Of a stretch of 64,000 nucleotides of DNA, positions 11,018 through 47,452 are shown piece by piece. The stretch lies in the NCBI GenBank assembly GCA_049523215.1, contig JBEKNC010000006.1, positions 21,105 to 85,104 of the forward strand, given 5' to 3'. The notes under the pieces were generated by a model. The model did not search any database, had not been told where the DNA came from, and saw only the letters and a program-made list of their open reading frames with translations. Position 1 is the first letter of the stretch; the number at the start of each line of letters is the position of its first letter. The stretch comes from Bacteroidota bacterium. GTDB taxonomy: Bacteria; Bacteroidota; Ignavibacteria; UBA10030. A program made the position numbers and the translations under genes.

Positions 11018-11151
11018 CCGGACAACCATACTAAGATTTTTATTTGAGTTCAATAATTGAATAATGGACTTGATCGTGCTTTTCTTGCATCTTGCTCGTT
11101 TTTCCGTTACTTTATTTACGAAATAATTCACAAGTACCAACGAATCCACTG

Positions 11152-12123: not shown

Positions 12124-12203
12124 GACTCTGTGTCTATCTGTTCTTCAATCATCGATTCCCATTTTCTATACATCGGATAGTATATACAAACCCGACAGGT
12201 GGA

Positions 12204-12941: not shown

Positions 12942-14365
12942 TAAAGAATACCGACATAACAATTCCCTTGAAAGAATATTTTGACTCCATCGCAGATCGA
13001 TGGGATCGATGGAAAAAGCGTAACCGCTATTATCATACGAGTGTTGAACGTTTGCTGCAATTTCTCGTCACTCCACGCTCTTCTGTACTTGAAATCGGCT
13101 GCGCTACAGGTGATTTACTTCATGCCGTTCAACCGACAGAGGGTGTCGGCGTGGATATTAGTCCTGCAATGATTCAACTAGCTCAGCAAAAGCATCCGCA
13201 TTTAATATTTCATGTAATGAATGCGGAAGAATTATCGCTTGATCAAAAGTTTGACTATGTTATAATGTCTGATCTCGTTGGGCATTTATATGACATCCAG
13301 CTTGCTCTGGAAAAAGCCCATACTGTCATGAGACCGCGCTCCCGCCTTATTATTACATACTATAATTTTTTGTGGGAGCCGGTTCTTCTTCTAGCAGAAA
13401 GAATCGGCATCAAGACTCCCCAACCGCGTCAGAATTGGATCAACACACATGACTTGCATAACTTGCTCGATTTGGCAGATTTTGAAATTATCCGCAATGG
13501 ATATCGATTGCTCCTGCCAAAGAACATTCCTGTAATCTCATGGCTCTTCAACAAATATTTTTCTCAACTTCCCTTGTTAAGAAAATTTTGCGTCGTCAGG
13601 TTCATTGTTGCACGCCCGCGGGTTCAGGAAACCAATTCTGATCGATTTTCTGTTTCTGTCATTATTCCAGCACGGAACGAACGCGGCAATATCGAGACAG
13701 CCGTACAACGCATTCCTAATATGGGCAGCAAAACTGAAATAATTTTTGTGGAAGGTGGCTCTAAAGACGGAACACTTGATGAAATTAAACGTGTTATAAA
13801 TCTTTACGGTGAGAAACAAAATATTACCTATTGCGTACAAAGCGGCAGTGGAAAAGCGAATGCAGTACGCGATGGCTTTGCCCGTGCAACCGGCGATGTT
13901 CTCATGATTCTTGACGGTGACTTGACTGTAGTTCCAGAAGATTTGCCAAAGTTTTTCAACGCACTCACTACAAACCATGGAGAGTTTGTCAACGGCAGCC
14001 GGCTCGTCTATCCAATGGAAAAAGAAGCAATGCGTTTTCTAAATCTCATTGGCAATAAGTTCTTCAGTATAATGTTCACTTACCTGCTAGATCAAAAATT
14101 CAAAGATACACTCTGTGGAACAAAAGTGCTCTTTAAATTAGATTACGAAAAAATTGTAGCAAATCGTTCTTACTTCGGGGAGTTTGATCCGTTCGGCGAT
14201 TTCGATCTTATCTTCGGCGCTGCAAAACAGAATATGAAAATTGTCGAAATGCCAATTCGCTACACTGAACGTACGTACGGTACAACCAATATCCAACGCT
14301 GGCGGCATGGATTATTACTGCTAAAAATGGTAGCAGTTGCAGCACGCCGAATGAAATTTGTTTAA
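12938..14365 (+). CDS. Fusion protein: N-terminal SAM methyltransferase plus C-terminal GT2 glycosyltransferase
   Basis: N-terminal half: VLEIGCATGDLL (motif I). C-terminal half: SVIIPARNERGNIE, ILDGDLTVVPEDL (DxD). ATGA overlap with the upstream methyltransferase gene. Confidence 0.75.
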   Translation: MIKNTDITIPLKEYFDSIADRWDRWKKRNRYYHTSVERLLQFLVTPRSSVLEIGCATGDLLHAVQPTEGVGVDISPAMIQLAQQKHPHLIFHVMNAEELSLDQKFDYVIMSDLVGHLYDIQLALEKAHTVMRPRSRLIITYYNFLWEPVLLLAERIGIKTPQPRQNWINTHDLHNLLDLADFEIIRNGYRLLLPKNIPVISWLFNKYFSQLPLLRKFCVVRFIVARPRVQETNSDRFSVSVIIPARNERGNIETAVQRIPNMGSKTEIIFVEGGSKDGTLDEIKRVINLYGEKQNITYCVQSGSGKANAVRDGFARATGDVLMILDGDLTVVPEDLPKFFNALTTNHGEFVNGSRLVYPMEKEAMRFLNLIGNKFFSIMFTYLLDQKFKDTLCGTKVLFKLDYEKIVANRSYFGEFDPFGDFDLIFGAAKQNMKIVEMPIRYTERTYGTTNIQRWRHGLLLLKMVAVAARRMKFV

Positions 14366-14378
14366 GTGAATTTCGCTC

Positions 14379-16115
14379 ATGGCAAAACACAATCGTTCAG
14401 ATAATAGCAAAACTAAGACTTATGCGAAACTTACAAAATATGATCGCATGAGTTTGTGGTTCGAAAAAAACACACAACTGTGGCTCTTCTGTGTGCTTGT
14501 TATTGGATTGAGCGCCGGCATCTTATCATTCGACATAAAACCAAGTGTTGATGGCGATGACACCTCGTATGTACTGCAAGCGATGAACATTGTTTCTACA
14601 GGTCAGTTTCCGGTTGGATTCAGAACCCCGGGTTATCCAATTATTCTGGCATTGTTTATCTTTGTTTTCGGTACAAACTTGATACTGCTGAAAGCAACAT
14701 CGTTAATATTTTTTCTTGGAATTATTCTTTCGTTATTCTTCGTTTTCCGCAAACGCCTCAAGCCGATGATGCTTTTTCCAACCTTACTATTCATCGCTCT
14801 CAATCCGCTGATGTTAAGATATTCGCATCAGACATTTAGCGAAATATTTTTTGCACTGTTACTGGTATGGGCAATCTATTGCATTCTGCGCGCTAGTGAA
14901 ACAAACTCGTTTATCTTCACGATCTTTGCCGCCATCATTACCATGGCATCATTTTATATCCGCATTGCAGGCATTACAGTTGTTGTAGCAACGGTTCTTT
15001 TCTTCGCACTGCAACGTTGCTGGAAACAAGGCGGTGTATTTATCATTGCATGTATAATACTTTATAGTCCGATAAAGATTTATGAGTGGTCATCCGGAAC
15101 AGCGGCATTCGGACAAGCTTCCATTCTCCTGTTAAAGAATCCGTATAACTCAACACTGGGATTAGAAACACTCGGCGGATTTATCGAACGATTCATCAAT
15201 AACATTATCAATCAATTGAATTATCAAATTCCATTCGCGCTAGGATTGCCTATGCCGCCCGAAATAGGCACTGCCGACGGCAGGTTGTTATCTTTTCCCA
15301 ATGGTTATGGAACCGAGTCAATAAATTGGATTGCATGTTTAGGGATTCTTGTTTCCATCGTTGTACTCATTGGTCTCATCACGTCTCTTGTAAAACGTAA
15401 AATTACGACTACATCTTTCATTGGAATTTTTATCATGGTGTATATTGCCTTCATCTCACTGGCATTGCAAAATCTTTTTGCCACACCACGCATGCTTGTT
15501 CCAATTATCCCATATTTATTTTTTGGAATATTTGAAGGATTCCGCTGGCTCGGCAATCGTTGGGCAAAAGTGACAAATGCAGAAACCGTTTCAGCACGCG
15601 CTAAAACGCTTACGCTTATTGCATGTTGCGGATTGATATTTGCTGGAGTAACGGGAACAAAACAAGCTGTCGATGAAAATTATCCAATACTGAAAGCAAA
15701 CCTTGGTGGAAATAAATTCGCCGGTTTCACGGAAGATTGGGTAAATTATCTGCGGGCATCACTATGGATCAAAGAGCAACTGCCGGCACAAACCACCGGC
15801 ATCATCTGCCGAAAACCTGAATTGTTTCTTATCTACGCCGGTAATTATTCTGTTTATGGAACTTACAAAATTGATCAGACAAATCCGGATTCAATTGTTG
15901 CAAAGTGGAAGTCGCTTAAGATGACACACCTTCTTTACGACAACTTCCAGTGGTCCTCCACGCTGCGCCGATACGTGCAGCCGGTTGCAGAAAAGTACCC
16001 GCAGATGTTTGAACTTGTACATCAAGAAGGCTCGCAATTCCCCAGTTATATTTTTCGTCTTAATTATTTGGCAGCGACCGACTCAGCAGTACTCCAAAAA
16101 GGACGGATGCATTGA
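14379..16115 (+). CDS. GT-C fold membrane glycosyltransferase (ArnT/PMT, GT39/GT83-like)
   Basis: About 12 TM. Acidic DGDD motif in the first extracytoplasmic loop (SVDGDDTSYVLQA). Typical length of about 580 aa. Confidence 0.55.
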   Translation: MAKHNRSDNSKTKTYAKLTKYDRMSLWFEKNTQLWLFCVLVIGLSAGILSFDIKPSVDGDDTSYVLQAMNIVSTGQFPVGFRTPGYPIILALFIFVFGTNLILLKATSLIFFLGIILSLFFVFRKRLKPMMLFPTLLFIALNPLMLRYSHQTFSEIFFALLLVWAIYCILRASETNSFIFTIFAAIITMASFYIRIAGITVVVATVLFFALQRCWKQGGVFIIACIILYSPIKIYEWSSGTAAFGQASILLLKNPYNSTLGLETLGGFIERFINNIINQLNYQIPFALGLPMPPEIGTADGRLLSFPNGYGTESINWIACLGILVSIVVLIGLITSLVKRKITTTSFIGIFIMVYIAFISLALQNLFATPRMLVPIIPYLFFGIFEGFRWLGNRWAKVTNAETVSARAKTLTLIACCGLIFAGVTGTKQAVDENYPILKANLGGNKFAGFTEDWVNYLRASLWIKEQLPAQTTGIICRKPELFLIYAGNYSVYGTYKIDQTNPDSIVAKWKSLKMTHLLYDNFQWSSTLRRYVQPVAEKYPQMFELVHQEGSQFPSYIFRLNYLAATDSAVLQKGRMH

Positions 16116-17239
16116 AAATCGTTATCGTTGGTCCAGCCTATCCTCTACGGGGAGCAATGGCACAATTAAATATCATACTCGGATGGTATTTATCCAAGAA
16201 CCATGATGTGCAAATTGTTTCATTTATAAGGCAGTATCCTTCGTTGCTTTTTCCAGGCAAGTCACAGATAGATCCAGGGAAACCATTGTTCAATATTCCC
16301 ACTGTTTCATTGATAGATTCCATTAATCCAATCTCTTGGTACCGTGCTGCTCGATATATTACAAACCAAAAGCCAGACGTTATCATCTTCCGGTACTGGA
16401 TGCCATTCTTTGCACCATGCTTTGGTTCGATTGCCCGACTAGTAAAGCGTAAAACCAACACACAGGTGATTTTCATTTGTGACAATATCATCCCGCATGA
16501 AAAACGACCTGGCGATGCAGCGCTGACAAAGTATGCATTCCATTCTGTCGATGCGTTTGTCGTGTTATCTAAAACAGTAGAAGAAGATCTTCATCGGTTT
16601 CTTCCAAAGGCGCGATATGTTTTGACGCCTCTTCCCTTGTTCAATGTTTTCGGGGAACTTCAACCAAAGCGAGAAGCACGGATGAAGCTTGGAATATCCG
16701 ACGATCATGTAATGCTTTTCTTTGGCTATGTGCGGGCTTACAAAGGACTTAGTGTATTACTCGATGCAATGCCGCTCATTCTAAAAAAAATATCTGGGAT
16801 GCTTCTTATCGCGGGAGAATTTTATGAGGATGAAGAAAAATATCGGAAAAAAATTCGGGAACTTGGGTTGGAAAAACATATTCGGTTGCATTCCGATTAT
16901 GTTCCGAATGAAGAAATTTCGACATATTTCTCTGCTGCCGATGTCGTTGTTCTTCCTTATGTTTCTGCGACACAAAGTGCAATTGTACCGATTGCCTATC
17001 ACTTTAATAAACCGGTGATTGTTACGAATGTTGGTGGTTTATCCGAAGTGGTTACAAACGGGCGCACAGGATTCATCGTTCCCCCACAGAATCCCAAAGC
17101 GTTTGCGGACGCTGTAGTGAAGTTTTATCAGGAAAAATGTGAGGGCGGGTTCGCATTAAACATTCAAAAAGAAAAGAAACAATACGGATGGGATACATTC
17201 GTCGAGCGACTCGAAAGTTTACTTGAGCAAAATATTTGA
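16112..17239 (+). CDS. Glycosyltransferase family 4 (GT-B)
   Basis: C-terminal EX7E-like region FLIAGEF...VVLPYVSATQSAIVPIAYHFNKPVIVTNVGGLSEVV. Confidence 0.8.
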   Translation: MKIVIVGPAYPLRGAMAQLNIILGWYLSKNHDVQIVSFIRQYPSLLFPGKSQIDPGKPLFNIPTVSLIDSINPISWYRAARYITNQKPDVIIFRYWMPFFAPCFGSIARLVKRKTNTQVIFICDNIIPHEKRPGDAALTKYAFHSVDAFVVLSKTVEEDLHRFLPKARYVLTPLPLFNVFGELQPKREARMKLGISDDHVMLFFGYVRAYKGLSVLLDAMPLILKKISGMLLIAGEFYEDEEKYRKKIRELGLEKHIRLHSDYVPNEEISTYFSAADVVVLPYVSATQSAIVPIAYHFNKPVIVTNVGGLSEVVTNGRTGFIVPPQNPKAFADAVVKFYQEKCEGGFALNIQKEKKQYGWDTFVERLESLLEQNI

Positions 17240-18051
17240 CTATGCAATACGATCCAATTAAAAAGATTTTTGGCGATGTAGCACGGAACAAACCATTGCT
17301 ACGAATTCTATTCTACAAACTGCTCGGTGTGATGTTTCTACGCGAGTGGTATGTGAAGCGCGAACTCCATCGACAACTGGACAATCGTCGTGAACCGTTC
17401 ACCGTGTACGATGCCGGCAGCGGCTTCGGGCAATATTCATACTTTATTGCGAAACAATTTCCGCTTGCGACTATCTATGGTATTGATTTGAAAGAGGAGC
17501 AGGTTGCCGACTGCAATCAATTCTTCCGCACGATTGGTATGGTGCGGTGCTCCTTTGCCATTGAAGACCTGACGCAAATTCAGCATACAGACAAATTTGA
17601 TGCTATCCTTTCGGTAGACGTGCTGGAACATATACAGGATGACGTAACGGTCTTTCAAAATTTTTATCGCGCACTCAAGAAAAACGGACAGCTTTTTATC
17701 AATACACCTTCGAACCTCGGCGGATCCGATGTACATTCGGAAGGCGACCACAGCTTTGTCGAAGAACATGCACGTAACGGCTATGGTATGGAGGAGATAC
17801 GGAACAAATTGGAGGCTGTCGGTTTTCGCGTGGAGATGATACGCTACACGTATGGACATTGGGGCACCGTTGCATGGCGATTGGGCATCAAATTCCCGCT
17901 GCTGCTTTTGAATGCCTCAAAGGGATTTTTTATCTTGCTGCCACTCTACTACCTCATCGTATTACCGTTGGTTTTACCGATGATGTGGTTGGATTACAGT
18001 ACCGATAACAAAACTGGTACAGGATTGAATGTAGTGGCAAAGAAAGTGTGA
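17236..18051 (+). CDS. Class I SAM-dependent methyltransferase with C-terminal TM segment
   Basis: VYDAGSGFGQYS (motif I), LKKNGQLFINTP. Hydrophobic C-terminus. Confidence 0.75.
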   Translation: MTMQYDPIKKIFGDVARNKPLLRILFYKLLGVMFLREWYVKRELHRQLDNRREPFTVYDAGSGFGQYSYFIAKQFPLATIYGIDLKEEQVADCNQFFRTIGMVRCSFAIEDLTQIQHTDKFDAILSVDVLEHIQDDVTVFQNFYRALKKNGQLFINTPSNLGGSDVHSEGDHSFVEEHARNGYGMEEIRNKLEAVGFRVEMIRYTYGHWGTVAWRLGIKFPLLLLNASKGFFILLPLYYLIVLPLVLPMMWLDYSTDNKTGTGLNVVAKKV

Positions 18052-18135
18052 TGTTGTGTGTGCCATTGAATTTGTTGAAAGTAACTCCTTTTCTCTGTAT
18101 TATATTTTCAGGAGAGAATCGAAGCAAGCTCCTCA

Positions 18136-20715
18136 TTGTCAAAAATTTCTCACCATATTCATGAGGGATTAAAATTATTTATGGCAAAGAAAGTAAGAGA
18201 ACAGGTTCGTAACCCCAAAACCATGGCGGAGCATCCCATCATCCCGCCGAAGTATCAACACACCGCAGCGATTGCTATACTTTTCTTGAGCATCATTATC
18301 TTTTTTGCTCCAATAGTCTTTGGAGGTAAAATATTTGTCAGTGTAGATTCTATAGGTTCTCACAGTTGGGAAACGCTGCAACGTGATGCAAAGGAACAGG
18401 GTATCTTTCCTTTATGGAATCCATATATCTTCTGCGGTATGCCGGGATATGCAAGTCTCAGCTTTGCAGGCGAGCGGTTGTTCGATCTTTCTGCTGTAGT
18501 GTTAGGATACGTACATACGATTTTCCAATATATCGTCTTGAATGCTTCTCAAGGTTGGGTATTGTTCTATTACCTTGTCTTTGCCGTTGGTATCTATACG
18601 CTGACGTTTAGCAAGCTAAATAATAAAATTTCCGCTCTGATTGCTGCGCTTGGTGCAACATTTTCCACACGCATCATTGTGTGGGTTATGATCAGTCATC
18701 TTACAAAAATGCCGGTGATGTGCTGGTTCCCATGGATCATTCTGTGCCTTGATAAATTGCGAATGCGTTTCGATTGGAAGTATTTTCTTGGGCTTGTATT
18801 GCTGATCCACTTCAGTTTTCTGCCAAGCCACATGCAAATGATTTTCTATCTATTTCTTGCATTAGGATTATATCTGCTCTACGAGCTTTTAGCTGCAATA
18901 ATAAAGAAGACTGATTGGAAACCTGTTTTGCGATTAATCGGATCTCTTGTTGTTGCAATAGGCATTGCTTTTGCAATGAATGCAGATCAGTACCTTTCCG
19001 TTTTGGAGTACGGTTCATATTCTATTCGCGGCTCAGCGCCGATTGTCAAAGCTCCAGGGGAAGATGCAAAAACTCAAGAAGGCGGGCTTGGCTATGAGTA
19101 TGCTACAAACTGGTCATTTGCCCCAAGTGAAATGATGACATTTGTTGTGCCATCGTGGTACGGTTTCGGTGATCACGAGTATAGCGGAAGATTGGTAAAT
19201 CGTCCGATGCATGTCAACACATACTGGGGACCACAGTCGATGGTAGATTGTCCGAATTATATGGGTATCGTCATTCTCGCATTTGCATTGGTTGGTATTG
19301 TGCGTTATCGCAAAGATTCTTTTGTGCAATATATGGGTATCACAATCATTATTGCGACACTGATTAGTTTTGGAAGAGAATTTTCACTCGTGTATGATCT
19401 TATGTTTAAATATTTCCCTGGATTTAATAAATTCCGCGTACCGATTACGATTCTCGTACTCATGCAAATCTTTCTTCCTATTCTTGCGGCATATGGCATT
19501 ACATCGCTTATGGCGCTAAGAGGAGAACGAGGAAACACAGCAGGGATGAAGAAAATAAAATATGCTATGTATGGACTTGGGATTTTCTTGGTGCTTACAG
19601 TTATCGGTCGAAGCTCTTTTGAAAGTTTATACAGCGGCTTCTTCCCATTAAATGAAGCTGGACCGCATTTGGCGAGAGCAATTGGTACTGGAGATCCTGG
19701 AGTTATTTCAGAATTCTATAATTTCGTTGTCAATGCAGTAATGTCCGATCTCTATTTGGGATTGGTATTACTTCTAGTGAGTTTTGGCAGCATCTGGCTT
19801 TTCTTGAAGGGCTCTCTCAAAGCTACTACACTCAGTGTTATTCTTATTCTTGCTGTAGTTGTTGATTTATGGCGTGTTGACAAAAAACCCATGGAACCGC
19901 AAGAGAAGCGGGTTCAAACAAACCTCTTCGATACTCCAGATTACGCCTCGTATTTACTGAAAGACAAAACTCTTTACCGCACGCTCGAATTCGAAAATGG
20001 CCAACCTCCCTATAGCAATATGCTCGCATATTGGCGTATTCAAAGCGCGTATGGCTATCAGGGTGTGAAGATGCGGCAAATTCAAGATGTATTTGATATC
20101 GTTGGTCTCAGTAATCCGCTTTTATGGGGATTGATGAATGTGAAATATATCATTTCAGATCGGTCTGATTCGAATCAGATACTGCAGCCTATGTTCAAAG
20201 GAAAAGATAAATTCATCCTTTACAATCGCGCAGAATTGCCTCGCGCGTTTTTTGTGAATAGATATGAAATCGCAAAGGGCTTGGATATATTAAACAGAAT
20301 AAAGTCGATGGATTTTAACCCGCGAGATGTAGCATTCGTTTTAGAAGATCCAAAGCTTCAGATCGAAACGCCAAAATCAGACGCAGAAGTTCATTACACA
20401 CATTATGGAATTCAAGATCTTGAAGTACGTGCAACGGCGACAGGGAATAATCTTTTATTTCTCAGTGAAGCTTACTATCCTAAGGGATGGAAAGCGGATA
20501 TCGATGGGAACGAGGTGGAAATTCTTCGGCTTGATTATCTCTTCCGCGGTGTTATTATTCCTCCAGGAACTCATACACTGACGATGAAGTTTGAACCGGC
20601 ATCATTTATTCTTGGAAAGAGTATTAGCTTAGGAACGAATCTGTTGGTTCTCAGCGGTCTTCTGGTGTTCGCGATACAATTCTTCGTTCGAAAAAAGAAA
20701 GAATCACAATTCTAA
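18136..20715 (+). CDS. Large polytopic membrane protein, YfhO-like (putative GT-C glycosyltransferase)
   Basis: 859 aa. More than 10 TM helices in the N-terminal two-thirds and a soluble C-terminal domain, the architecture typical of the YfhO family. Family assignment by architecture only. Confidence 0.5.
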   Translation: MSKISHHIHEGLKLFMAKKVREQVRNPKTMAEHPIIPPKYQHTAAIAILFLSIIIFFAPIVFGGKIFVSVDSIGSHSWETLQRDAKEQGIFPLWNPYIFCGMPGYASLSFAGERLFDLSAVVLGYVHTIFQYIVLNASQGWVLFYYLVFAVGIYTLTFSKLNNKISALIAALGATFSTRIIVWVMISHLTKMPVMCWFPWIILCLDKLRMRFDWKYFLGLVLLIHFSFLPSHMQMIFYLFLALGLYLLYELLAAIIKKTDWKPVLRLIGSLVVAIGIAFAMNADQYLSVLEYGSYSIRGSAPIVKAPGEDAKTQEGGLGYEYATNWSFAPSEMMTFVVPSWYGFGDHEYSGRLVNRPMHVNTYWGPQSMVDCPNYMGIVILAFALVGIVRYRKDSFVQYMGITIIIATLISFGREFSLVYDLMFKYFPGFNKFRVPITILVLMQIFLPILAAYGITSLMALRGERGNTAGMKKIKYAMYGLGIFLVLTVIGRSSFESLYSGFFPLNEAGPHLARAIGTGDPGVISEFYNFVVNAVMSDLYLGLVLLLVSFGSIWLFLKGSLKATTLSVILILAVVVDLWRVDKKPMEPQEKRVQTNLFDTPDYASYLLKDKTLYRTLEFENGQPPYSNMLAYWRIQSAYGYQGVKMRQIQDVFDIVGLSNPLLWGLMNVKYIISDRSDSNQILQPMFKGKDKFILYNRAELPRAFFVNRYEIAKGLDILNRIKSMDFNPRDVAFVLEDPKLQIETPKSDAEVHYTHYGIQDLEVRATATGNNLLFLSEAYYPKGWKADIDGNEVEILRLDYLFRGVIIPPGTHTLTMKFEPASFILGKSISLGTNLLVLSGLLVFAIQFFVRKKKESQF

Positions 20716-20756
20716 GATGTTGTTGAATGTATCAAAGCAATGAGAAAGGGTTCTAA

Positions 20757-21539
20757 ATGAAAGCGGTGATTTTATGCGGTGGTAAGGGGACACGGATCAA
20801 AGGGATATCCGAATTACTTCCTAAACCAATGGTGCCCATCGGCGGCATGCCTATTTTATGGCACATCATGAAGAACTATTCTCATCACGGGATCAAGGAA
20901 TTTATTCTGTGTTTGGGTTATAAATCATGGGAGATTAAAGAATTCTTTGTGAACTATAAGGCCATTTGCCATAATTTCACAATAAATCTTAAGAACGACC
21001 ATATGGACATTCACGATACTTTGGAAGACTCAGATTGGAAAGTGACGCTTGTCGATACCGGAGAAAACACCATGACAGGCGGACGCCTGTCGCGAGTGAA
21101 AAAATATTTAGAAGGTGAAGAGCTATTTTGTCTAACCTATGGTGACGGTCTTTCTGATATAAACATCCGGGAGAGTATAGAATTCCACAAGAAATCCGGA
21201 AAAATCGGTACATTAGCTGCCGTACATCCATCTTCGCGATTTGGTGAAATTACATTTAAAGATTCCACCGTCACAAATTTCAATGAAAAAGCAAATCTTG
21301 GACAAGGATGGATAAACGGCGGATTTATGATCTTCGACAATAAAAGACTCTGGGATTATTTGTGGTCAGATGATGATCTAGTGTTAGAGCGAGACACACT
21401 CCCTGCCCTAGTAAAAGACAATCAGCTGGGGGCATTCCAGCATGAGGGTTTCTGGCTTGGTATGGATACACCGCGAGAATATGAATCCTTAAACGAAATG
21501 TGGGCAAGCGGTACTGCTCTCTGGAAAACCTGGACTTAA
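20757..21539 (+). CDS. rfbF: Glucose-1-phosphate cytidylyltransferase
   Basis: MKAVILCGGKGTRIKGISELLPKPMVPIGGMPILWHIM... Confidence 0.9.
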   Translation: MKAVILCGGKGTRIKGISELLPKPMVPIGGMPILWHIMKNYSHHGIKEFILCLGYKSWEIKEFFVNYKAICHNFTINLKNDHMDIHDTLEDSDWKVTLVDTGENTMTGGRLSRVKKYLEGEELFCLTYGDGLSDINIRESIEFHKKSGKIGTLAAVHPSSRFGEITFKDSTVTNFNEKANLGQGWINGGFMIFDNKRLWDYLWSDDDLVLERDTLPALVKDNQLGAFQHEGFWLGMDTPREYESLNEMWASGTALWKTWT

Positions 21540-21546
21540 TAACTTT

Positions 21547-22650
21547 ATGGAACATTCATTTAAGAACTTTTATCAGAACAAACGTATTTTAGTAACAGGG
21601 CATACGGGTTTTAAGGGAGCATGGCTCAGCATCTGGCTCAACGAGCTTGGTGCAAAAGTATTTGGATATTCATTGGATCCTCCATCGCAACCGAATATCT
21701 ATGAATCGAGCGGTCTGCAAAGCCGCATTGAAGAACTCCATGCCGATGTTCAGAATTATGATACATTAAAAAAATATGTTTCAGAAGTGAAACCTGATGT
21801 CGTGTTCCATTTAGCTGCTCAGGCACTGGTACGATATTCCTATGATGTTCCCCATCTGACCATAAGAACCAATGTTCTCGGAACTTTAAATATTCTCGAA
21901 GCTGTCAAAGAATCTGATTCGGTTAAATCGCTCGTCATTGTCACAAGCGATAAATGCTATGAGAATCATGAACAGGTTTGGGGATATAAGGAGAGCGATC
22001 CTCTAGGCGGGGAAGATCCGTACAGCGCCTCAAAGGCTGCTGCAGAAATTGTTTTTCGTTCGTATCTCAAATCTTTCTTTCGACATAAGGAGAATCTCGG
22101 TGCCGTGAGCGTGCGCGCAGGAAATGTCATTGGAGGAGGAGATTGGGCAAAGGATAGGATCGTACCGGATGCCATCAGATCCTTGAGCAAAGGTGAGTTA
22201 ATTCAAATACGGAACCCCATGGCCATGCGTCCATGGCAGCATGTGTTAGAACCGCTCAGTGGTTATTTATGGCTGGCTGCACGTGCAAGCGATGATCCGA
22301 CCGGATTTTCCGGAGCCTGGAACTTTGGGCCAAACGATAATTCTGCAAAGTGTGTACGTGATCTTGTGGAAGCGATCATTGGTAAATGGAAAAGCGGCGG
22401 ATTCGAAGTTATGCAGCAAGAGGGACGAAAACTCCATGAAGCAGGCTGGTTACGATTGACCTGTGACAAGGCCCATGTCATGCTGCCCTGGTCTGCGGTG
22501 CTCACGTTCGATGAAAACATGAAACTTACTGTAGACTGGTATAAAAAGTATCACGAGAGCCCGGATCAAAACCTGTATCATTACACTGTCCACCAGATAC
22601 GCCAGTATACAGAATTGGCACGAAAGAGAGATCAAGTCTGGGCGACTTAA
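21547..22650 (+). CDS. rfbG: CDP-glucose 4,6-dehydratase
   Basis: ILVTGHTGFKGAWLSIWL, YSASKAAAE (YxxxK). Extended SDR. Confidence 0.9.
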   Translation: MEHSFKNFYQNKRILVTGHTGFKGAWLSIWLNELGAKVFGYSLDPPSQPNIYESSGLQSRIEELHADVQNYDTLKKYVSEVKPDVVFHLAAQALVRYSYDVPHLTIRTNVLGTLNILEAVKESDSVKSLVIVTSDKCYENHEQVWGYKESDPLGGEDPYSASKAAAEIVFRSYLKSFFRHKENLGAVSVRAGNVIGGGDWAKDRIVPDAIRSLSKGELIQIRNPMAMRPWQHVLEPLSGYLWLAARASDDPTGFSGAWNFGPNDNSAKCVRDLVEAIIGKWKSGGFEVMQQEGRKLHEAGWLRLTCDKAHVMLPWSAVLTFDENMKLTVDWYKKYHESPDQNLYHYTVHQIRQYTELARKRDQVWAT

Positions 22651-22692
22651 CACCAGAAATGAGGCTCTGATATTCACGTGTTTTGTATCTGA

Positions 22693-23982
22693 TTGATGTC
22701 TTTTTTAACAAGAACCTGTTATGTGAAAATGAATATGAATCACACAGAGATTTTTTGCCGTTCATGTAGTTTTAACCGGCTTGTATCAATTTTATCGTTA
22801 GGTCACATGCCATTAGCGAACGCCTTACTGACTCAAGCTCAACTCGGCCAGCCGGAATCGACCTATCCGCTGGATCTTGTATTTTGTCCGCAATGCAGCT
22901 TAGTACAGATCACCGAGACAATTTCTCCGGAACAGTTATTTCGAGAATACTTTTATTTTTCTTCTGTCTCTGACACAGTATTGGAAAATGCCAAGAACAT
23001 TGCAAACCGTTTAGTCACAAACAGAAATTTAACTTCATCAAGTTTGGTCGTTGAGATTGCCAGCAACGACGGCTATCTTTTAAAGAACTATCTGAACAAG
23101 AATATTCCCGTCTTAGGAATAGAACCAGCAGCAAATATCGCACACGTAGCAGAAAAAAGCGGTATTCGTACTCTCTGTGAATTTTTCGATGAAACAGTAG
23201 CTCAACGATTACGGACACAAGGGGAACAGGCGGATGTGGTCCATGCCAATAATGTTGTCGCACATGTCGCAAACCTTCATAGTGTTGTGGCGGGAATCAA
23301 TGTGCTTTTGAAACCCGATGGTGTCGCTGTCATTGAAAATCATTATGTAAAGGATCTTATCGATCATGTTGAGTTTGATTCCATTTACCACGAACACTTG
23401 TGCTATTACTCAGTGACATCGTTTCAAAAATTGTTCCGCCAGCACAATCTCGTTCTGGTAGACGCTGAGAGGCTGCCAATCCAGGGAGGTTCCATACGAG
23501 TCTTCTTTCAACGTGCGGACGGTCCATGCAGCATGGCGCACGAGGGTGCCATACGAGTAAAGAGATTGCTTGAAGAAGAAGCTACGTGGGGTGTTGATCG
23601 CTTTGATTGGTATAAAGGTTTTAGCGAAAAAGTAGAGCAGACAAAACGAGAATTGGTTTCGGTTTTACAAAAGTTAAAAACGGAGGGCAAGAAGATTGCC
23701 GTCTATGGGGCGTCTGCAAAGAGCACCACCTTGCTGAACTACTATGGGATCGGATCAGATATTCTCAGTTATGTGGTCGACAGGGGACCAGCGAAGCAGG
23801 GACGCTATACGCCGGGAACCCATCTTCGCATCTATCCGCCGGAACAGTTGCTGGAAACCCAGCCGGATTATGTACTCCTGCTCTCGTGGAATTTTGCAGA
23901 CGAGGTACTGCTTCAGCAAGCTGAATATCGCCGGCGCGGCGGAAAGTTTATCATACCTATCCCCCATCTAAGAATTGTGTGA
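22693..23982 (+). CDS. NDP-hexose C-methyltransferase-like (Zn-ribbon N-terminus plus SAM methyltransferase plus C-methyltransferase C-terminal domain)
   Basis: CRSC...CPQC Zn-ribbon at the N-terminus. [12 protein letters not shown] (motif I). About 420 aa, typical of TylCIII-like sugar C-methyltransferases. Confidence 0.7.
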
Positions 23983-24518
23983 TCAACATGATCTTTTCTA
24001 AAACAACCATCCCTGATGCTTTTCTTATTTCTCTGAATCGTAATGAAGATGAGCGGGGTTTTTTCGCTCGTACATTTTGCCGTTCTGATTTTACAGAACA
24101 TGGACTCAATCCCGATCTTGTACAGTGCAGCATCTCTTTTAATAAGCAGAGGGGCACTTTGCGCGGTATGCATTTCCAGAAACCGCCGTACGAAGAGACC
24201 AAAGTAGTGCGCTGCACGATGGGTGCAATGTTCGATGTTATTATTGATCTGAGACCTAACTCGCCGACATTTAAGCAATGGCTGTCGTTTGAATTAAATG
24301 CTGAGAACCGATCAATGTTGTATATCCCCCGGGGTCTTGCTCACGGATTCCTGACACTGGAAGATAACACTGAAGTGTTTTATCAGATGTCTGATCGATA
24401 CGTCCCTGAATCTGCCGCAGGCGTTCGATGGAACGACACGGCCTTCGGGATCCAATGGCCTGAGACCCCACGGATTATTTCAGTGAAGGATCAGGAGTAC
24501 ACGGATTTCATCTTATGA
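23979..24518 (+). CDS. NDP-4-keto-6-deoxyhexose 3,5-epimerase (RmlC-like cupin)
   Basis: ERGFFARTF...RGMHFQ. RmlC family pattern. About 180 aa. Confidence 0.85.
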
Positions 24519-25435
24519 AGAAGGTTCTCGTAACCGGAGGAAGTGGATTTATCGGTCGTCACTGTTTACCAGTGCTCGTAGCAAACGGTTATGAGGTTCA
24601 CGCTGTGTCTATCGCACCAGAGGATCCTCTACCACAAATTCATTGGCATGTCGTCGACTTGCTGAATCCGGGTGAAGTGAACGAACTCATCGCAAAAGTA
24701 AAACCGACACACCTGCTTCACTTATCCTGGTATACAGTCATGGGAAAGTACTGGACGTCACTGGAGAACATCCGCTGGGTTCAGGCAAGTTTGGAATTAC
24801 TTCGAGTATTTGCGGCAAACGGTGGAAAGAGGGTTGTGATGGCAGGAACGTGTGCGGAGTACGATTGGAAATATGAATTGTATTCCGAGCAAACCACACC
24901 TCTTGTACCCGCGACACTTTATGGAGCCTGCAAACATGCACTGCATATCATGGTTGATGCTTTTTGCAAGCAAACCGGGTTAAGCTATGCCTGGGGGCGA
25001 ATTTTCTTTCTCTATGGCCCGCACGAGCATCCGGATCGACTCGTCTCTTCTGTGATTTGTTCACTCTTGAAAGGAGAACCGGCACGTTGTTCTCATGGCA
25101 ATCAGATGCGGGATTTCCTTCATGTGGAAGATGTCGCTTATGCATTTGTTATGCTTCTCGATTCCGATATGGAAGGTGCTGTGAACATTGGACGAGGAAC
25201 ACCGACAGCAATTCGTGAGGTTATTGAGATAATCGGCGACCAATTACATGGTAAGCATTTAATTCAGCTCGGAGCGCTGCCCGCGCCGCCCAATGATCCA
25301 CCTGCCTTGATTGCCGATGCACATCGCCTCAAAAGTATTGGCTGGCTCCCGAAGTACGATTTGAAAACCGGATTAGAACATACAATTGCTTGGTGGAAAA
25401 CGAACCTTATCACTGTAAAAAGATCGCAAAAATGA
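24515..25435 (+). CDS. NAD(P)-dependent NDP-sugar 4-reductase/epimerase (extended SDR)
   Basis: VLVTGGSGFIGRH. YGACK (YxxxK). Confidence 0.8.
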   Translation: MKKVLVTGGSGFIGRHCLPVLVANGYEVHAVSIAPEDPLPQIHWHVVDLLNPGEVNELIAKVKPTHLLHLSWYTVMGKYWTSLENIRWVQASLELLRVFAANGGKRVVMAGTCAEYDWKYELYSEQTTPLVPATLYGACKHALHIMVDAFCKQTGLSYAWGRIFFLYGPHEHPDRLVSSVICSLLKGEPARCSHGNQMRDFLHVEDVAYAFVMLLDSDMEGAVNIGRGTPTAIREVIEIIGDQLHGKHLIQLGALPAPPNDPPALIADAHRLKSIGWLPKYDLKTGLEHTIAWWKTNLITVKRSQK

Positions 25436-26196
25436 AACTCACCATAGATACGAATTCGAAAATATTAGCTTATGAGATTGACGGCCGCACGCAAAACATT
25501 GATTTGTACTCAAAAGAAGCATTTGAATTGATATCGAAACAATGGCTCAAGGTAGGATGGAATCAAAAATATCTGTATACCTTTAGTTGGATGGGACGAC
25601 CTATCATTCAATTACCCGAGGATATGATTCGCATCCAGGAGGTGATCTATCGCATCAAACCGGATGTGATCATTGAAACTGGAATTGCGCATGGCGGCTC
25701 CCTGATTTATTATGCCAGCCTATGTAAAGCGATGGGAAAAGGAAGAGTTATTGGAATCGATATCGAGATTCGTCCACACAACGCCCAAGCAATTCAAGCA
25801 CATGAATTATTTGGATTTCTTACTCTTGTCGAGGGAAATTCAACTGATCCTGAGATTATTGCGAGAGTGAAGAGTATGGTCAAGCCCGGAGAAACCGTTC
25901 TGGTGATTCTCGACTCCAACCATACAAAGCAGCATGTCGCTGACGAACTTGAAGCGTATTATACTCTTGTGACTCCCAATTCATATATTGTTGCAACAGA
26001 TGGCAGCATGCTCGATTTATTTGATGTACCGCGAGGAAAACCAGATTGGAAATGGAATAACCCTACGGCTGCTGCTGCCGAATTCCAGCACAACCATCCT
26101 GAGTTTATTATAGAACAACCACAGTGGCCTTTTAATGAAAGCGAGCTTTCGCTCAATATTACTCATTGGCCGGGCGCCTGGCTGAAGAAGAAATAA
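25432..26196 (+). CDS. CmcI-family (cephalosporin hydroxylase-like) sugar O-methyltransferase
   Basis: IQLPEDMIRIQEVIYRIKPDVIIETGIAHGGSL. Pattern of rhamnosyl O-methyltransferases. ATGA overlap with the upstream gene. The listed ORF start 25390 is a TTG. Confidence 0.7.
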   Translation: MKLTIDTNSKILAYEIDGRTQNIDLYSKEAFELISKQWLKVGWNQKYLYTFSWMGRPIIQLPEDMIRIQEVIYRIKPDVIIETGIAHGGSLIYYASLCKAMGKGRVIGIDIEIRPHNAQAIQAHELFGFLTLVEGNSTDPEIIARVKSMVKPGETVLVILDSNHTKQHVADELEAYYTLVTPNSYIVATDGSMLDLFDVPRGKPDWKWNNPTAAAAEFQHNHPEFIIEQPQWPFNESELSLNITHWPGAWLKKK

Positions 26197-26202
26197 CGCT
26201 TC

Positions 26203-27693
26203 ATGTCTTCAATAAAAAAAAATGTCGTTGCAAATTTTGCCGGGAGTGCTTGGACCGGCCTAATGGGGGTGATCTTTGTTCCCATTTACATCCGGTTGAT
26301 GGGTGTAGAGTCCTATGGAGTTATCGGAATTTTCGCCTCTCTTCAGGCAATGTTTGCGGTGCTTGATCTGGGCTTATCTCAAGCCCTTGCCAGAGAAATG
26401 GCACGCCTTTCCGTAGATCAGAAAAACACAAACCGCATGGCTGATACGGCACGCACATTGGAAATTATTTATTGGGGAATTGCTTTGGTCGTCATTGCCG
26501 TCATCACAGTGGCGTCTCATTTCATCGCTTATCATTGGTTGAATCCGGAAAAAATATCCCGGGAATACCTGTTGGAAGTCCTCTGGATCATGGCGCTGGT
26601 CGTGGGCTTGCGTTGGCCTGTGTCGTTGTATATGGGAGGCCTCAACGGTTTGCAGCGCCAAGTCCTTGTGAATTCGGTCCTCGCGATTTTCGCAACGCTG
26701 CAAGGAGCGGGTGCGGTAGCAGTGTTATGGCTGATACAACCAACAGTTCAGACGTTCTTCTTTTGGCAGGCACTGATGGCGCTGGCCCAAGTGATCGTGC
26801 TGCGGATTGCATTGTGGCGGAACCTTTCTTCTGAACGGAAAGGAATGTTTCGCGGAGATGTGTTGAAGGAAATCTGGCGGTTTGCAGCGGGCATGACCGG
26901 CATCTCCCTGGTATCAACGATTCTGATGCAAACGGATAAAATCTTGCTCAGCAAGCTGCTTTCTCTCTCTGACTTCGGGTACTACACCTTCGCTGCAACG
27001 GTGGCGGCAGTACTGTACAGGCTCATCGCACCTGTGTTCACAGCGTACTATCCCCGTTTGACAGAGTTGGTTTCCAAAGATGATCAGCCTGGATTAGTGA
27101 GAACATATCATCAGGGCTGCCAATTTATGGCGGTTGTTATTCTTCCGTCAGCGCTTACTCTCGCTTTCTTTTCTAAAGAAGTGCTTAGCTTGTGGGTAAG
27201 GGATCCCGGAGTTATTGCCCATGCAAGTTTATTGGTGAGTTTGTTGGTGATCGGGAATACTCTGCATGGCTTTATGCATCTACCCTATGCATTACAACTC
27301 GCACATGGATGGACAAAGCTTTCCTTTTCTACGAATCTGGTTGCCGTAATTTTTTTCGCTCCTGCAATCTATTTCTCAACGATGGCTTGGGGTACTGTGG
27401 GAGCTGCCAGCATGTGGATCGTCCTGAATATAGGATATCTCCTTATCGTTATTCAGCTCATGCATCTCCGCTTATTGAAACATGAAAAATGGTCATGGTA
27501 TCGCAATGATGTAGGTAAGCTGCTAGCGATAACTCTGGCTGTCACTGGTGTAGGGCGATTGATCATGAGGGATGGTTTGGAAGACATTCTAAAATTCGTG
27601 ATATTAATGATAGTTTTTGGAGTGGCAACGTTGAGTACAGTTATGGGAACAGCATGGTTACGTGATGCATTTAAGATTCGGCGGATTTTATGA
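26203..27693 (+). CDS. wzx: Oligosaccharide flippase (Wzx/MOP superfamily)
   Basis: About 12-14 TM. N-terminal NFAGSAWTGLMGVIFVPIYIRLMG typical of polysaccharide biosynthesis protein family. Confidence 0.8.
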   Translation: MSSIKKNVVANFAGSAWTGLMGVIFVPIYIRLMGVESYGVIGIFASLQAMFAVLDLGLSQALAREMARLSVDQKNTNRMADTARTLEIIYWGIALVVIAVITVASHFIAYHWLNPEKISREYLLEVLWIMALVVGLRWPVSLYMGGLNGLQRQVLVNSVLAIFATLQGAGAVAVLWLIQPTVQTFFFWQALMALAQVIVLRIALWRNLSSERKGMFRGDVLKEIWRFAAGMTGISLVSTILMQTDKILLSKLLSLSDFGYYTFAATVAAVLYRLIAPVFTAYYPRLTELVSKDDQPGLVRTYHQGCQFMAVVILPSALTLAFFSKEVLSLWVRDPGVIAHASLLVSLLVIGNTLHGFMHLPYALQLAHGWTKLSFSTNLVAVIFFAPAIYFSTMAWGTVGAASMWIVLNIGYLLIVIQLMHLRLLKHEKWSWYRNDVGKLLAITLAVTGVGRLIMRDGLEDILKFVILMIVFGVATLSTVMGTAWLRDAFKIRRIL

Positions 27694-27742
27694 TTGATCA
27701 TAAATTATTACGATGGAAACTATTAGACATAATTGCTAAACA

Positions 27743-28948: not shown

Positions 28949-29025
28949 TCAAAGGGTCCAAGCTCTCGTGTTACCAAATAACTGAATTATCGACACCATC
29001 TGATAACCTGATCATATCATGTAGT

Positions 29026-29967: not shown

Positions 29968-30032
29968 TTTGTCGGTAAAATTTGCGTCAATACTTCTTTA
30001 ATAAACAACATATTTCGTTTTCAAGGGGTATT

Positions 30033-30839: not shown

Positions 30840-30915
30840 TTTGTACAAGTTGAAGCACCATCCAATATTAGTGAAATGGCAATCGGAAGTTGTATCCAGT
30901 TGAGATATCTATTAT

Positions 30916-30978: not shown

Positions 30979-31035
30979 CACCATGCAGTTACGTTTTATC
31001 GGCTATTTTACAGAATTCTTCACACTCCCCAAAAA

Positions 31036-36360: not shown

Positions 36361-36362
36361 GA

Positions 36363-47441: not shown

Positions 47442-47452
47442 GGAACACGCAT

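Follow-up and report, generated by a model that had tools for sequence, protein, structure and literature searches.

A six-gene module in an Ignavibacteriota glycan locus predicted to make a C- and O-methylated CDP-6-deoxyhexose

Which sugar is made by a run of genes that pairs CDP-glucose enzymes with two dissimilar methyltransferases, and on what do those methyltransferases act? The genes in question, six co-directional + strand open reading frames in the ORF list, span positions 20757-26196 of the window (the whole 64,000-nt stretch of DNA that was analysed). They belong to a locus for a cell-surface polysaccharide in an Ignavibacteriota bacterium that is uncultured. Judged from their sequences, it is very probable that their product is a CDP-activated 6-deoxy sugar bearing one carbon-linked and one oxygen-linked methyl group. 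We assigned them as follows:

20757..21539, + strand: glucose-1-phosphate cytidylyltransferase of the RfbF/DdhA type, 260 aa (TIGR02623 equivalog, 327.5 bits vs. a cutoff of 300.25)
21547..22650, + strand: CDP-glucose 4,6-dehydratase of the RfbG/DdhB type, 367 aa (TIGR02622, 467.8 bits vs. 278.45)
22729..23982, + strand: NDP-hexose C-methyltransferase of the TylC3/TcaB9/KijD1 type, 417 aa (PF08421, PF13489, PF08484)
23988..24518 (alternative GTG start 23979), + strand: RmlC-type NDP-4-keto-6-deoxyhexose epimerase, 176 aa (PF00908, 4.4e-64)
24515..25435, + strand: extended-SDR NAD(P)-dependent oxidoreductase, the candidate reductase, 306 aa (PF01370, 1.6e-44)
25432..26196, + strand: CmcI/RMNT-family SAM-dependent O-methyltransferase, 254 aa (PF04989 RMNT_CmcI, 242.7 bits, 4e-72)

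An earlier note on this DNA had proposed the same six enzymes, and its assignments are borne out by family thresholds, closest solved structures and catalytic residues; the E-values of all six are strong, far beyond chance, and the catalytic residues that were checked are intact. The note had also described the genes as mostly ATGA-overlapping; there are five junctions, and this is true of only two, at 24515 between epimerase and reductase and at 25432 between reductase and O-methyltransferase. Of the other three, cytidylyltransferase and dehydratase are separated by 7 nt, dehydratase and C-methyltransferase by 42-78 nt, and C-methyltransferase and epimerase either overlap as GTGA (start at GTG 23979) or leave a 5-nt gap (start at ATG 23988). 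The C-methyltransferase probably starts at ATG 22729, downstream of the mechanical ORF start at TTG 22693, and the O-methyltransferase probably at ATG 25432, overlapping the reductase stop codon, where the mechanical ORF opens at TTG 25390. The gene order, with its stop/start codon overlaps, is that of the proposed reactions.

The first two steps are strongly supported by sequence. The cytidylyltransferase, which matches the Salmonella RfbF structure over its full length (1tzf, E = 1.6e-73), would convert CTP and Glc-1-P to CDP-D-glucose, and the dehydratase (1wvg, 4e-107; 1rkx, 2e-101), in which we found GHTGFKG, T133 in TSDKCY and Y159/K163, would convert this to CDP-4-keto-6-deoxy-D-glucose by NAD-dependent 4,6-dehydration. 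Both enzyme types (RfbF/DdhA and RfbG/DdhB) are shared with the Salmonella/Yersinia pathways to the 3,6-dideoxyhexoses (tyvelose, abequose, paratose, ascarylose) and to yersiniose, but the analogy with yersiniose and tyvelose that had been drawn earlier holds for these two steps only, because the window contains neither E1 (DdhC) and E3 (DdhD) of the 3,6-dideoxy route nor a ThDP-dependent YerE-like gene for yersiniose synthesis. Without these genes in the window, C-3 would not be deoxygenated and the branch would come from SAM, not from pyruvate; as the window also has no aminotransferase gene, the expected product is a 6-deoxyhexose that keeps its 2- and 3-oxygens.

The branch is assigned to the C-methyltransferase, a three-domain protein with a Zn domain (PF08421, 2.8e-22), a class I methyltransferase domain and a PF08484 C-terminal domain (5.3e-58), whose only solved relatives, all matched over the full length, are the sugar 3-C-methyltransferases KijD1 (5t64, 1.3e-84), MtmC (4rv9, 2.4e-82) and TcaB9 (3ndi, 1.3e-74). 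Cys10/13/53/56, Y74/Y76, H179 and Y220-H221-E222-H223 are invariant over 17 homologues. The window enzyme thus shares its domain architecture, Cys4 site and Y-x-E-H motif with the TylC3, TcaB9, KijD1 and MtmC type of the mycarose, tetronitrose and kijanose pathways, but the substrates of that group are dTDP-linked 2,6-dideoxy or 3-amino-4-keto sugars of actinomycete antibiotic pathways, whereas the predicted substrate here is CDP-linked, retains its 2-hydroxyl and is bound for a surface glycan. The dTDP-sugar enzymes KijD1, MtmC and TcaB9 are better precedents than those of yersiniose or tyvelose. As the supported enzyme type implies, the Zn-ribbon protein would deprotonate a carbon adjoining the 4-keto group, most likely C-3, and methylate it from SAM.

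The RmlC-type enzyme would then epimerise the remaining acidic position or positions. It exceeds the TIGR01221 cutoff (179.2 bits vs. 155.75) and is close to genuine RmlC enzymes (7pvi, 2.5e-46; 1dzr, 9.2e-40); its H62, K72 and Y132 align to H63, K73 and Y133 of 1dzr, and the C-terminal K-D (D168) is kept. If C-3 is by then quaternary, C-5 is the one position left for epimerisation, and an L-series sugar would result. Reduction of the 4-keto group is attributed to the SDR protein from the need for such a step, the position of the gene and the catalytic triad (GGSGFIG, T112 and Y136xxxK140 were found). No NCBIfam equivalog scores above its cutoff for this protein, and its best solved structures, UXS, MoeE5 and GalE-like enzymes at about 1e-23, are decarboxylases and epimerases, which counts against the C-4 reductase role; an orthologue (39-56% identity) occupies the same slot of the module in other phyla.

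For the last step, the CmcI-family enzyme would probably O-methylate the sugar while it is still CDP-linked; analogy with vinelose (see below) and with the mycobacterial rhamnosyl 2-O-methyltransferase makes O-2 the probable site. The enzyme belongs to the same Pfam family (PF04989) as CmcI, of cephamycin 7-alpha-methoxylation, and Rv2959c, that rhamnosyl 2-O-methyltransferase. The match to the CmcI structure (2bm8, 2.2e-07) is limited to residues 50-164, a region in which the SAM motif and acidic and His residues are conserved, and the rhamnosyl O-methyltransferase equivalog NF045824 gives 76.9 bits, below its cutoff of 400. E82-T-G-x-A-H-G-G-S, D110, D161/H164 and D190 are invariant in alignment A2. 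Unlike CmcI and Rv2959c, the window enzyme falls in a very large clade of its own, whose genes sit within nucleotide-sugar modules, and has very numerous orthologues at 71-88% identity. The full six-step model, with a CDP-6-deoxy-3-C-methyl-O-methyl-L-hexose of the vinelose type feeding a Wzx-dependent glycan, is the reading towards which these sequences incline us, at somewhat better than even chances.

The ordered module is also found in Chloroflexota, Acidobacteriota, FCPU426 and Pseudomonadota, including the cultured Herbaspirillum sp. ST 5-3; it was recovered in other phyla when the C-methyltransferase was the starting point of sampling (L007, L013, L016, L021, L022, L025, L027), and its order is kept in all five contexts sampled from the O-methyltransferase side (L062-L066). 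Its neighbours vary, with Wzx, ABC transporter or TPR/GT41 giant genes and differing glycosyltransferases. The O-methyltransferases of Ignavibacteriota and Pseudomonadota are nevertheless 73-77% identical, more than the C-methyltransferases or reductases, and the combination suggests a constant small-molecule substrate. Natural fusions of CmcI-family proteins to an SDR (P0246, P0249) and to a full C-methyltransferase (P0308), taken with the differing export and glycosyltransferase genes, likewise suggest that each of the six works at the level of the nucleotide sugar. The product class proposed earlier, a C-methyl-branched, O-methylated CDP 6-deoxyhexose, thus gains support from thresholds, structures, residues, cross-phylum gene order and fusions, but not the view that sugars of this kind are rarely met beyond Yersinia and the antibiotics of actinomycetes, which fails at the gene level: as the same module recurs in many phyla, the pathway is, on sequence grounds, uncharacterised but common, and not exotic. 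Coxiella (PMC3539893) and Burkholderia (Robbsia) andropogonis (PMC7203242) are both known to have C-methyl 6-deoxyhexoses in their LPS.

The module is flanked on both sides by genes for glycan assembly, identified by Pfam and NCBIfam matches:

11092-12123, + strand: ArnC/PgfS-like polyprenyl-phosphate GT2
12204-12941, + strand: methyltransferase
12890-14365, + strand: methyltransferase-GT2 fusion
14379-16115, + strand: PMT_2/ArnT-like membrane protein
16112-17239, + strand: GT4
17236-18051, + strand: methyltransferase
18136-20715, + strand: YfhO-like membrane protein
26203..27693, + strand: Wzx-type (MOP) flippase, 6 nt 3' of the O-methyltransferase gene (PF01943, PF13440)
27743-28948, + strand: GT2 glycosyltransferase (PF00535)
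29026-29967, + strand: 313-aa protein with no Pfam or NCBIfam family match
29982-30839, + strand: FkbM-family methyltransferase (PF05050/TIGR01444)
31036-32277 and 32506-33798, - strand: two convergent GT4-type glycosyltransferases closing the locus (PF00534, PF13692, PF13439)

The upstream gene order (11092..20715) recurs in L001 and L003-L005, and the Ignavibacteriota loci L003-L005 also keep the downstream GT2 and 313-aa protein. A flippase gene follows the module in L002-L005, L022, L025, L027 and L065 as well; the flippase of the window scores 60.5 bits against the MOP flippase family model NF007773, below the cutoff of 273. The sugar would be used by the glycosyltransferases of the locus, and the glycan exported by the adjacent Wzx flippase.

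The closest precedent for the product is CDP-vinelose (CDP-6-deoxy-3-C-methyl-2-O-methyl-L-talose), which Azotobacter vinelandii accumulates and which was reportedly described by Okuda, Suzuki and Suzuki in J Biol Chem in 1967-68. It belongs to the class predicted here, a CDP 6-deoxyhexose that is both C-methyl-branched and O-methylated; the talo configuration belongs to vinelose and does not carry over to the window product. We know of no assignment of the vinelose methyltransferase and reductase genes. According to the citation of Hausman 1998 in PMC3769361, A. vinelandii carries an rfbF-rfbG-rfbC cluster, with cytidylyltransferase, CDP-glucose dehydratase and RmlC genes together as in the window. 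In Campylobacter jejuni HS:41, the cytidylyltransferase and the route from CDP-glucose through the 4,6-dehydratase, an RmlC-type 3,5-epimerase with CDP-4-keto-6-deoxy-D-glucose as its substrate and an NADPH-dependent C4-reductase have been demonstrated biochemically (PMC12369002); these four enzyme types are shared, by type, with the window, but the HS:41 pathway has no methyltransferases and ends in a pyranose/furanose mutase, which is absent from the window. CDP-vinelose and the HS:41 route are better precedents than yersiniose and tyvelose. Synechocystis PCC 6803 has, in a polysaccharide-export cluster, slr0983-slr0984-slr0985-slr1610, annotated as rfbF, rfbG, rfbC and a 'putative C-3 methyltransferase', and deletion of slr1610 changes its EPS (PMC3769361). 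That cluster resembles the window in these four genes, compared by annotation, but is linked to an ABC transporter and has no reported CmcI-type gene (PMC3769361).

Because the other four enzymes alone form a complete pathway of the HS:41 kind (PMC12369002), the module might make an ordinary CDP-6-deoxyhexose, e.g., 6-deoxy-L-altrose or D-fucose as in that strain, with methyltransferase-like proteins that have no activity or use substrates other than sugars. We regard this as highly improbable, since both proteins keep SAM motifs and catalytic or metal-binding residues that are invariant across phyla, have kept their places in the ordered module from phylum to phylum, occur in fusions, and are encoded by intact reading frames with stop/start overlaps or very short gaps to their neighbours. 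It is also improbable, to a lesser degree, that the C-methyltransferase acts at C-5 like NovU, with the RmlC-type enzyme serving only as a 3-epimerase like NovW, to give a noviose-related CDP 5-C-methyl (5,5-gem-dimethyl) 6-deoxyhexose. Both C-3 and C-5 adjoin the 4-keto group, and the noviose enzyme types match the module (4,6-dehydratase, NovW, the TylC3-family NovU, 4-ketoreductase and O-methyltransferase); NovW (2c0z) is detectably related to the window epimerase (E = 5e-24), which is, however, far closer to genuine 3,5-epimerases (2.5e-46). Every solved relative of the C-methyltransferase acts at C-3, and the sole known CDP-sugar of this kind, vinelose, is also 3-C-methylated. The C-methyl 6-deoxyhexoses reported from bacterial glycans are all 3-C-methyl, namely virenose (PMC3539893) and 3-C-methylrhamnose (PMC7203242).

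A rather unlikely but more serious alternative retains the pathway as far as CDP-6-deoxy-3-C-methyl-hexose and places O-methylation after glycosyl transfer, on the C-methyl residue itself, on one next to it or at the end of the chain, so that no O-methylated CDP-sugar is formed. The PF04989 members that have been characterised are not known to use nucleotide sugars as substrates (Rv2959c acts on glycolipid rhamnose, CmcI on a cephalosporin), with which the family name agrees, and most O-methylations of natural-product sugars follow transfer. CmcI-family relatives fused to GT2 domains (P0248, P0348) would fit methylation coupled to glycosyl transfer, and at least four other methyltransferases make the locus heavily methyltransferase-rich, with glycan-level methylation clearly in use. 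Against this stand the position of the O-methyltransferase gene directly after the reductase gene in all five independently sampled contexts despite differing glycosyltransferases and export genes, its cross-phylum conservation and its fusions to SDR and C-methyltransferase partners, as well as CDP-vinelose, an existing 2-O-methylated CDP-sugar of the same class. Against the six-step model, a closing O-methylation is not encoded in every related locus: in the nearest related genome (L005), a hexapeptide acyltransferase occupies the slot of the O-methyltransferase, and the last decoration would thus be exchangeable.

At 20757-26196, six co-directional ORFs on the plus strand have exactly the boundaries given in the earlier note, and Pfam and NCBIfam models assign all six to families.

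Genes of the module (window coordinates, strand, product and family match)
20757-21539, +, glucose-1-phosphate cytidylyltransferase (TIGR02623 equivalog, 327.5 bits vs. cutoff 300.25)
21547-22650, +, CDP-glucose 4,6-dehydratase (TIGR02622 equivalog, 467.8 bits vs. cutoff 278.45)
22693/22729-23982, +, C-methyltransferase (PF08421, 2.8e-22; class I methyltransferase PF13489, 3.7e-16; PF08484, 5.3e-58)
23979/23988-24518, +, RmlC-family epimerase (PF00908, 4.4e-64; TIGR01221, 179.2 bits vs. cutoff 155.75)
24515-25435, +, extended SDR (PF01370, 1.6e-44)
25390/25432-26196, +, CmcI/RMNT methyltransferase (PF04989, 242.7 bits vs. gathering score 23.2)

The genes are closely packed, and a Wzx gene starts 6 nt 3' of the module. 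Their description as mostly ATGA-overlapping was a slight overstatement: the epimerase/reductase and reductase/O-methyltransferase junctions are true ATGA overlaps, and the other three consist of one possible GTGA overlap or 5-nt gap, one 7-nt gap, and one gap of 42-78 nt 5' of the C-methyltransferase gene. Scanning of 17800-32500 detected no convincing terminator inside the module; promoter counts in the same region were close to the shuffled expectation, and these organisms probably do not use a sigma-70-type consensus. A foreign origin of the module was ruled out as far as composition is concerned (GC content 0.447 in the module, 0.436 in the rest of the window, and 0.421 in the glycan locus).

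For five of the six module proteins, clear relatives of known structure can be recognised from the sequence. The cytidylyltransferase matches Salmonella RfbF over its full length (1tzf, E = 1.6e-73, residues 2-259), and the dehydratase likewise matches Salmonella RfbG (1wvg, 4e-107) and keeps the NAD-binding motif GHTGFKG along with the catalytic residues T133, Y159 and K163. Homology and family thresholds strongly back the first two steps of the predicted pathway, in which CTP and Glc-1-P would yield CDP-D-glucose, and this would be dehydrated to CDP-4-keto-6-deoxy-D-glucose. Among solved structures, the epimerase comes nearest to genuine RmlC enzymes (7pvi, 2.5e-46; 1dzr, 9.2e-40), with H62, K72 and Y132 aligned to H63, K73 and Y133 of 1dzr, and the C-terminal K167-D168 aligned to the K-D of 7pvi. 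The reductase contains the motifs GGSGFIG (G8-x-S-G-x-x-G), T112 and Y136xxxK140; the solved structures most similar to it are those of UXS, MoeE5 and GalE-like proteins (~1e-23), and no NCBIfam equivalog reaches its cutoff for this protein. Its position and conservation in the module, with the catalytic motifs kept, suggest a putative role as C-4 ketoreductase.

The C-methyltransferase has the three-domain architecture of TylC3/TcaB9, namely, an N-terminal Zn-binding domain (PF08421), a class I SAM methyltransferase domain, and the C-terminal PF08484 domain. All ten of its solved relatives at E of 0.001 or better are sugar 3-C-methyltransferases that match end to end, including KijD1 (5t64, 1.3e-84), MtmC (4rv9, 2.4e-82) and TcaB9 (3ndi, 1.3e-74). 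In an alignment of 17 homologues, the zinc cysteines C10, C13, C53 and C56, the SAM motif E109-IASNDG, and Y74/Y76, H179 and Y220-H221-E222-H223 are invariant, and the four cysteines and the Tyr/His/Glu positions align with the corresponding motifs of KijD1 and MtmC. We take Y76, H181, Y222, E224 and H225 of TcaB9 to be the active-site residues equivalent to this Tyr/His/Glu set, and the Y220-H221-E222-H223 motif to be the site of the catalytic base, as in the work on TcaB9. The family is large, with more than 8000 database clusters at E of 1e-30 or better, many of which show about 70% identity.

The earlier note had placed the module by analogy with the tyvelose and yersiniose routes, and this analogy turned out to be only partly apt. 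We scanned all ORFs of at least 150 aa in the window, except for eight antisense shadow ORFs and a free-standing 186-aa ORF (60073-60633), which are too short for E1 or E3 (the 3-deoxygenation enzymes of the 3,6-dideoxyhexose route) or for YerE (the ThDP-dependent branching enzyme of the yersiniose route). Among the scanned ORFs, there was no E1 (DegT/DnrJ-like, PF01041), no E3 (ferredoxin-reductase-type), no aminotransferase and no member of any ThDP-enzyme family, YerE-type enzymes included. With these enzymes absent from the window, the route can be neither that of a 3,6-dideoxyhexose nor that of yersiniose, so that the analogy is rejected at the level of the pathway. It follows that both O-2 and O-3 should be retained in the sugar, and that the branch carbon must derive from SAM.

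The O-methyltransferase matches CmcI over residues 50-164 only (2.2e-07), and scores 76.9 bits against the mycobacterial rhamnosyl O-methyltransferase equivalog NF045824, below the cutoff of 400. In the alignment of its orthologues, the SAM motif E82-T-G-x-A-H-G-G-S, D110, D161, H164 and D190 are invariant, and the segment LDSNH (160-164) aligns to IDNAH of CmcI, with Asp and His conserved. A full scan of representatives at 50% identity yielded 4325 clusters of the CmcI family, of which 309 were at E of 1e-30 or better. Multidomain proteins containing the CmcI domain bear on whether this enzyme would act on the nucleotide sugar or later. Predicted fusions of an SDR with CmcI (P0246 and P0249), of CmcI with a complete C-methyltransferase that is 37% identical to that of the window (P0308), and of an MT23/MT14 protein with CmcI (P0350) support a functional link between these activities, and predicted fusions of CmcI with a GT2 glycosyltransferase (P0248 and P0348) count against action at the nucleotide-sugar level. 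Comparison ruled out the SDR half of P0246 as an orthologue of the window reductase; it resembles a shorter SDR that adjoins the O-methyltransferase gene in a Herpetosiphon locus (L009), so this fusion backs a link between CmcI and NDP-sugar SDRs in general terms only. The constancy of the module, while the flanking glycosyltransferases and export systems vary, argues that all six enzymes act on the nucleotide sugar, and O-methylation at that level by the CmcI-family enzyme is probable. We know of no description of such an activity in the CmcI family.

The remaining steps are proposed on several grounds taken together: the type of each enzyme, its conserved residues, precedent in the literature, the conservation of the module, and a gene order that would equal that of the reactions. 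The C-methyltransferase would deprotonate the carbon alpha to the 4-keto group and methylate it, most likely at C-3 rather than C-5; the RmlC-type enzyme would invert C-5, and C-3 as well only if it acts before methylation; the SDR would reduce C-4; and the CmcI-type enzyme would methylate one hydroxyl, with O-2 as the best guess. Judged from families, residues and conservation of the module, the central prediction of the earlier note, a CDP-linked 6-deoxyhexose that is both C-methyl-branched and O-methylated, is reasonable.

Such sugars had been described as rare, which does not hold at the level of genes, given that the module order is found across many phyla. Among 60 genome loci recovered with the two most conserved peptides of the C-methyltransferase, the order cytidylyltransferase-dehydratase-C-methyltransferase-epimerase is common, often with the reductase and O-methyltransferase downstream of it. 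This order was seen in Chloroflexota, Aminicenantes, Acidobacteriota, FCPU426 and Desulfobacterales. The C-methyltransferase, epimerase and reductase are present in Kaiserbacteria and Saccharibacteria of the same sample, and the carriers from the Candidate Phyla Radiation have a partial module without the O-methyltransferase. The complete six-gene order was found in all 5 contexts that were sampled independently from the O-methyltransferase side.

Loci sampled from the O-methyltransferase side (locus, source, flanking genes)
L062, cultured Herbaspirillum sp. ST 5-3, giant TPR/GT41 proteins
L063, metagenome contig, flanks not notable
L064, Pyrinomonadaceae, ABC transporter
L065, Mariprofundaceae, Wzx
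L066, another contig, Wzx

In these five loci, the O-methyltransferase is 73-77% identical to its window counterpart, the epimerase 56-63%, the reductase 49-56%, and the C-methyltransferase only 43-59%. The closest relatives of the C-methyltransferase (87-95% identity, same flanking genes) all come from MAGs (L001-L005), four of them labelled Ignavibacteriae, Ignavibacteriota or Ignavibacteriaceae, and one Bacteroidota. The Ignavibacteriota lineage also agrees with the T9SS sorting domain of a protein encoded in another part of the window.

Downstream of the reductase gene, related loci differ in the gene they carry, as expected of an exchangeable slot for tailoring enzymes. A hexapeptide acyltransferase takes the place of the O-methyltransferase in an Ignavibacteriaceae locus (L005:12665-13315), and some Chloroflexota loci have a hexapeptide-repeat acyltransferase or an N-formyltransferase in the slot (L008:11763-12458; L010:8316-9176). 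An extra MT23/MT14 protein without the Zn ribbon adjoins the O-methyltransferase in three loci (L002:7083-8246, L007 and L062), and a weak second C-methyltransferase-like match (19-23% identity) occurs at the same place in L016 and L021. With this extra gene, the Herbaspirillum module (at about 2,155,400-2,161,850 within locus L062, CP176528.1 2152086-2170850) comprises seven genes. Of the very large TPR-repeat proteins at its flanks, one carries a GT41 (O-GlcNAc-transferase-like) domain and one a Methyltransf_24 domain, a hint that this locus may serve to glycosylate proteins, flagellin for instance, instead of making a polysaccharide. In L008-L012, L014 and L064, the second gene encodes a shorter SDR that is 30-33% identical to the window dehydratase (21547-22650), and the flanking cytidylyltransferase is still 45-47% identical to that of the window. 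In many Chloroflexota modules and in the one from Pyrinomonadaceae, a non-orthologous SDR seems to have taken the place of the dehydratase.

The CDP-vinelose of Azotobacter vinelandii is said to have been described by Okuda, Suzuki and Suzuki in J Biol Chem in 1967-68 as CDP-6-deoxy-3-C-methyl-2-O-methyl-L-talose. This is the same product class as that predicted for the module, and a link of the module to the orphan CDP-vinelose pathway is possible. Chemists have known sugars of this class since the 1960s, and to our knowledge no genes have been assigned to them. An rfbF-rfbG-rfbC cluster is reported for A. vinelandii (Hausman et al. 1998, cited in PMC3769361). The published precedent for the proposed steps comes from Campylobacter jejuni HS:41, in which an RmlC-type 3,5-epimerase and a C4-reductase were shown to act on CDP-4-keto-6-deoxy-D-glucose (PMC12369002). 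Synechocystis PCC 6803 carries rfbF, rfbG, rfbC and a 'putative C-3 methyltransferase' (slr0983-0985 and slr1610), and deletion of slr1610 changes its EPS (PMC3769361). Two O-antigens are documented to contain a 3-C-methyl 6-deoxyhexose: that of Coxiella has virenose (PMC3539893), and that of Burkholderia (Robbsia) andropogonis has 3-C-methylrhamnose (PMC7203242). The ddhA-ddhB-C-methyltransferase cluster on pSymB of S. meliloti (PMC4053727) was rejected as a cultured equivalent: it includes a cytidylyltransferase, an SDR and a C-methyltransferase (52% identity), and is a different cassette, with no RmlC or CmcI gene nearby.

Our literature search found neither a characterised CDP-dependent sugar C-methyltransferase or CDP-sugar C-methylation pathway nor a paper characterising the six-gene module. 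The enzyme families and the pathway logic of this uncharacterised module are well known; its annotation is well founded and changes no concept. What lifts it above routine annotation is the very wide distribution and high conservation, the probable O-methylation by a CmcI-family enzyme at the nucleotide level, and the possible link to CDP-vinelose. A broader reading of the sequences is that the module encodes vinelose-type sugars (6-deoxy-3-C-methyl-2-O-methyl-L-hexoses), with a CmcI member acting at the nucleotide-sugar level, that it is shared horizontally across many phyla, with Ignavibacteriota, Chloroflexota, Acidobacteriota and Pseudomonadota among its carriers, and that such sugars are common and overlooked in environmental surface glycans; we put this reading forward tentatively, as possible but somewhat short of probable. 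If the prediction holds, it would provide a gene-level route to the CDP-vinelose class of sugar, add a CDP-dependent, 2-hydroxyl-retaining type of substrate to those of sugar C-methyltransferases, and reveal a CmcI-family member that O-methylates a nucleotide sugar. Given the wide occurrence of the module in uncultured phyla, hydrophobic deoxysugars with C- and O-methyl groups may be frequent on the surfaces of environmental cells, where they could matter for phage receptors, adhesion and glycan analytics. Enzyme engineers would gain a compact, co-linear set of six enzymes that starts from cheap CTP and Glc-1-P.

The module lies within a glycan locus of ~23 kb (11092-33798), directly after mreB and mreC, that also holds GT4 and GT2 glycosyltransferases, Wzx and the following genes, four of which encode methyltransferases beyond the two of the module.

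Further genes of the glycan locus (window coordinates, product)
11092-12123, ArnC/PgfS-like polyprenyl-phosphate GT2
12204-12941, class I methyltransferase
12890-14365, methyltransferase-GT2 fusion
14379-16115, PMT_2-like large GT-C-like membrane protein
17236-18051, class I methyltransferase
18136-20715, YfhO-like large GT-C-like membrane protein
29982-30839, FkbM methyltransferase

This gene content suggests that the glycan is heavily methylated and that some sugars may be added in the periplasm from lipid-phosphate donors. Between a GT2 gene and the FkbM methyltransferase gene lies a gene for a 313-aa protein without a Pfam or NCBIfam match (29026-29967), which has counterparts at 60-71% identity in Ignavibacteriota (L003-L005) and a weak one (28%) in Desulfobacterales (L017).

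The region adjoining the glycan locus (35596-44116) has low GC (0.38 at 36001-38000) and a strongly negative GC skew. Its genes encode a DUF5131 (phage Gp37/Gp68-like) protein, a LexA/CI-like S24 repressor (37780-38442), a family-B DNA polymerase (40207-42537) and three proteins that match no family, one of 294 aa and the others at 39131-39991 and 42620-44116. The block may be under SOS control or derive from a mobile element. The arginine-biosynthesis cluster at 44266-53110 (argC-like, argJ, argB, argR, argG and argH) is broken by a gene for a 619-aa protein with an N-acetylmuramoyl-L-alanine amidase domain (49743-51602). A 336-aa ORF on the minus strand (9070-10080) is antisense to mreB (9083-10108, PF06723, 7e-141), and is almost certainly a shadow ORF and not a gene.
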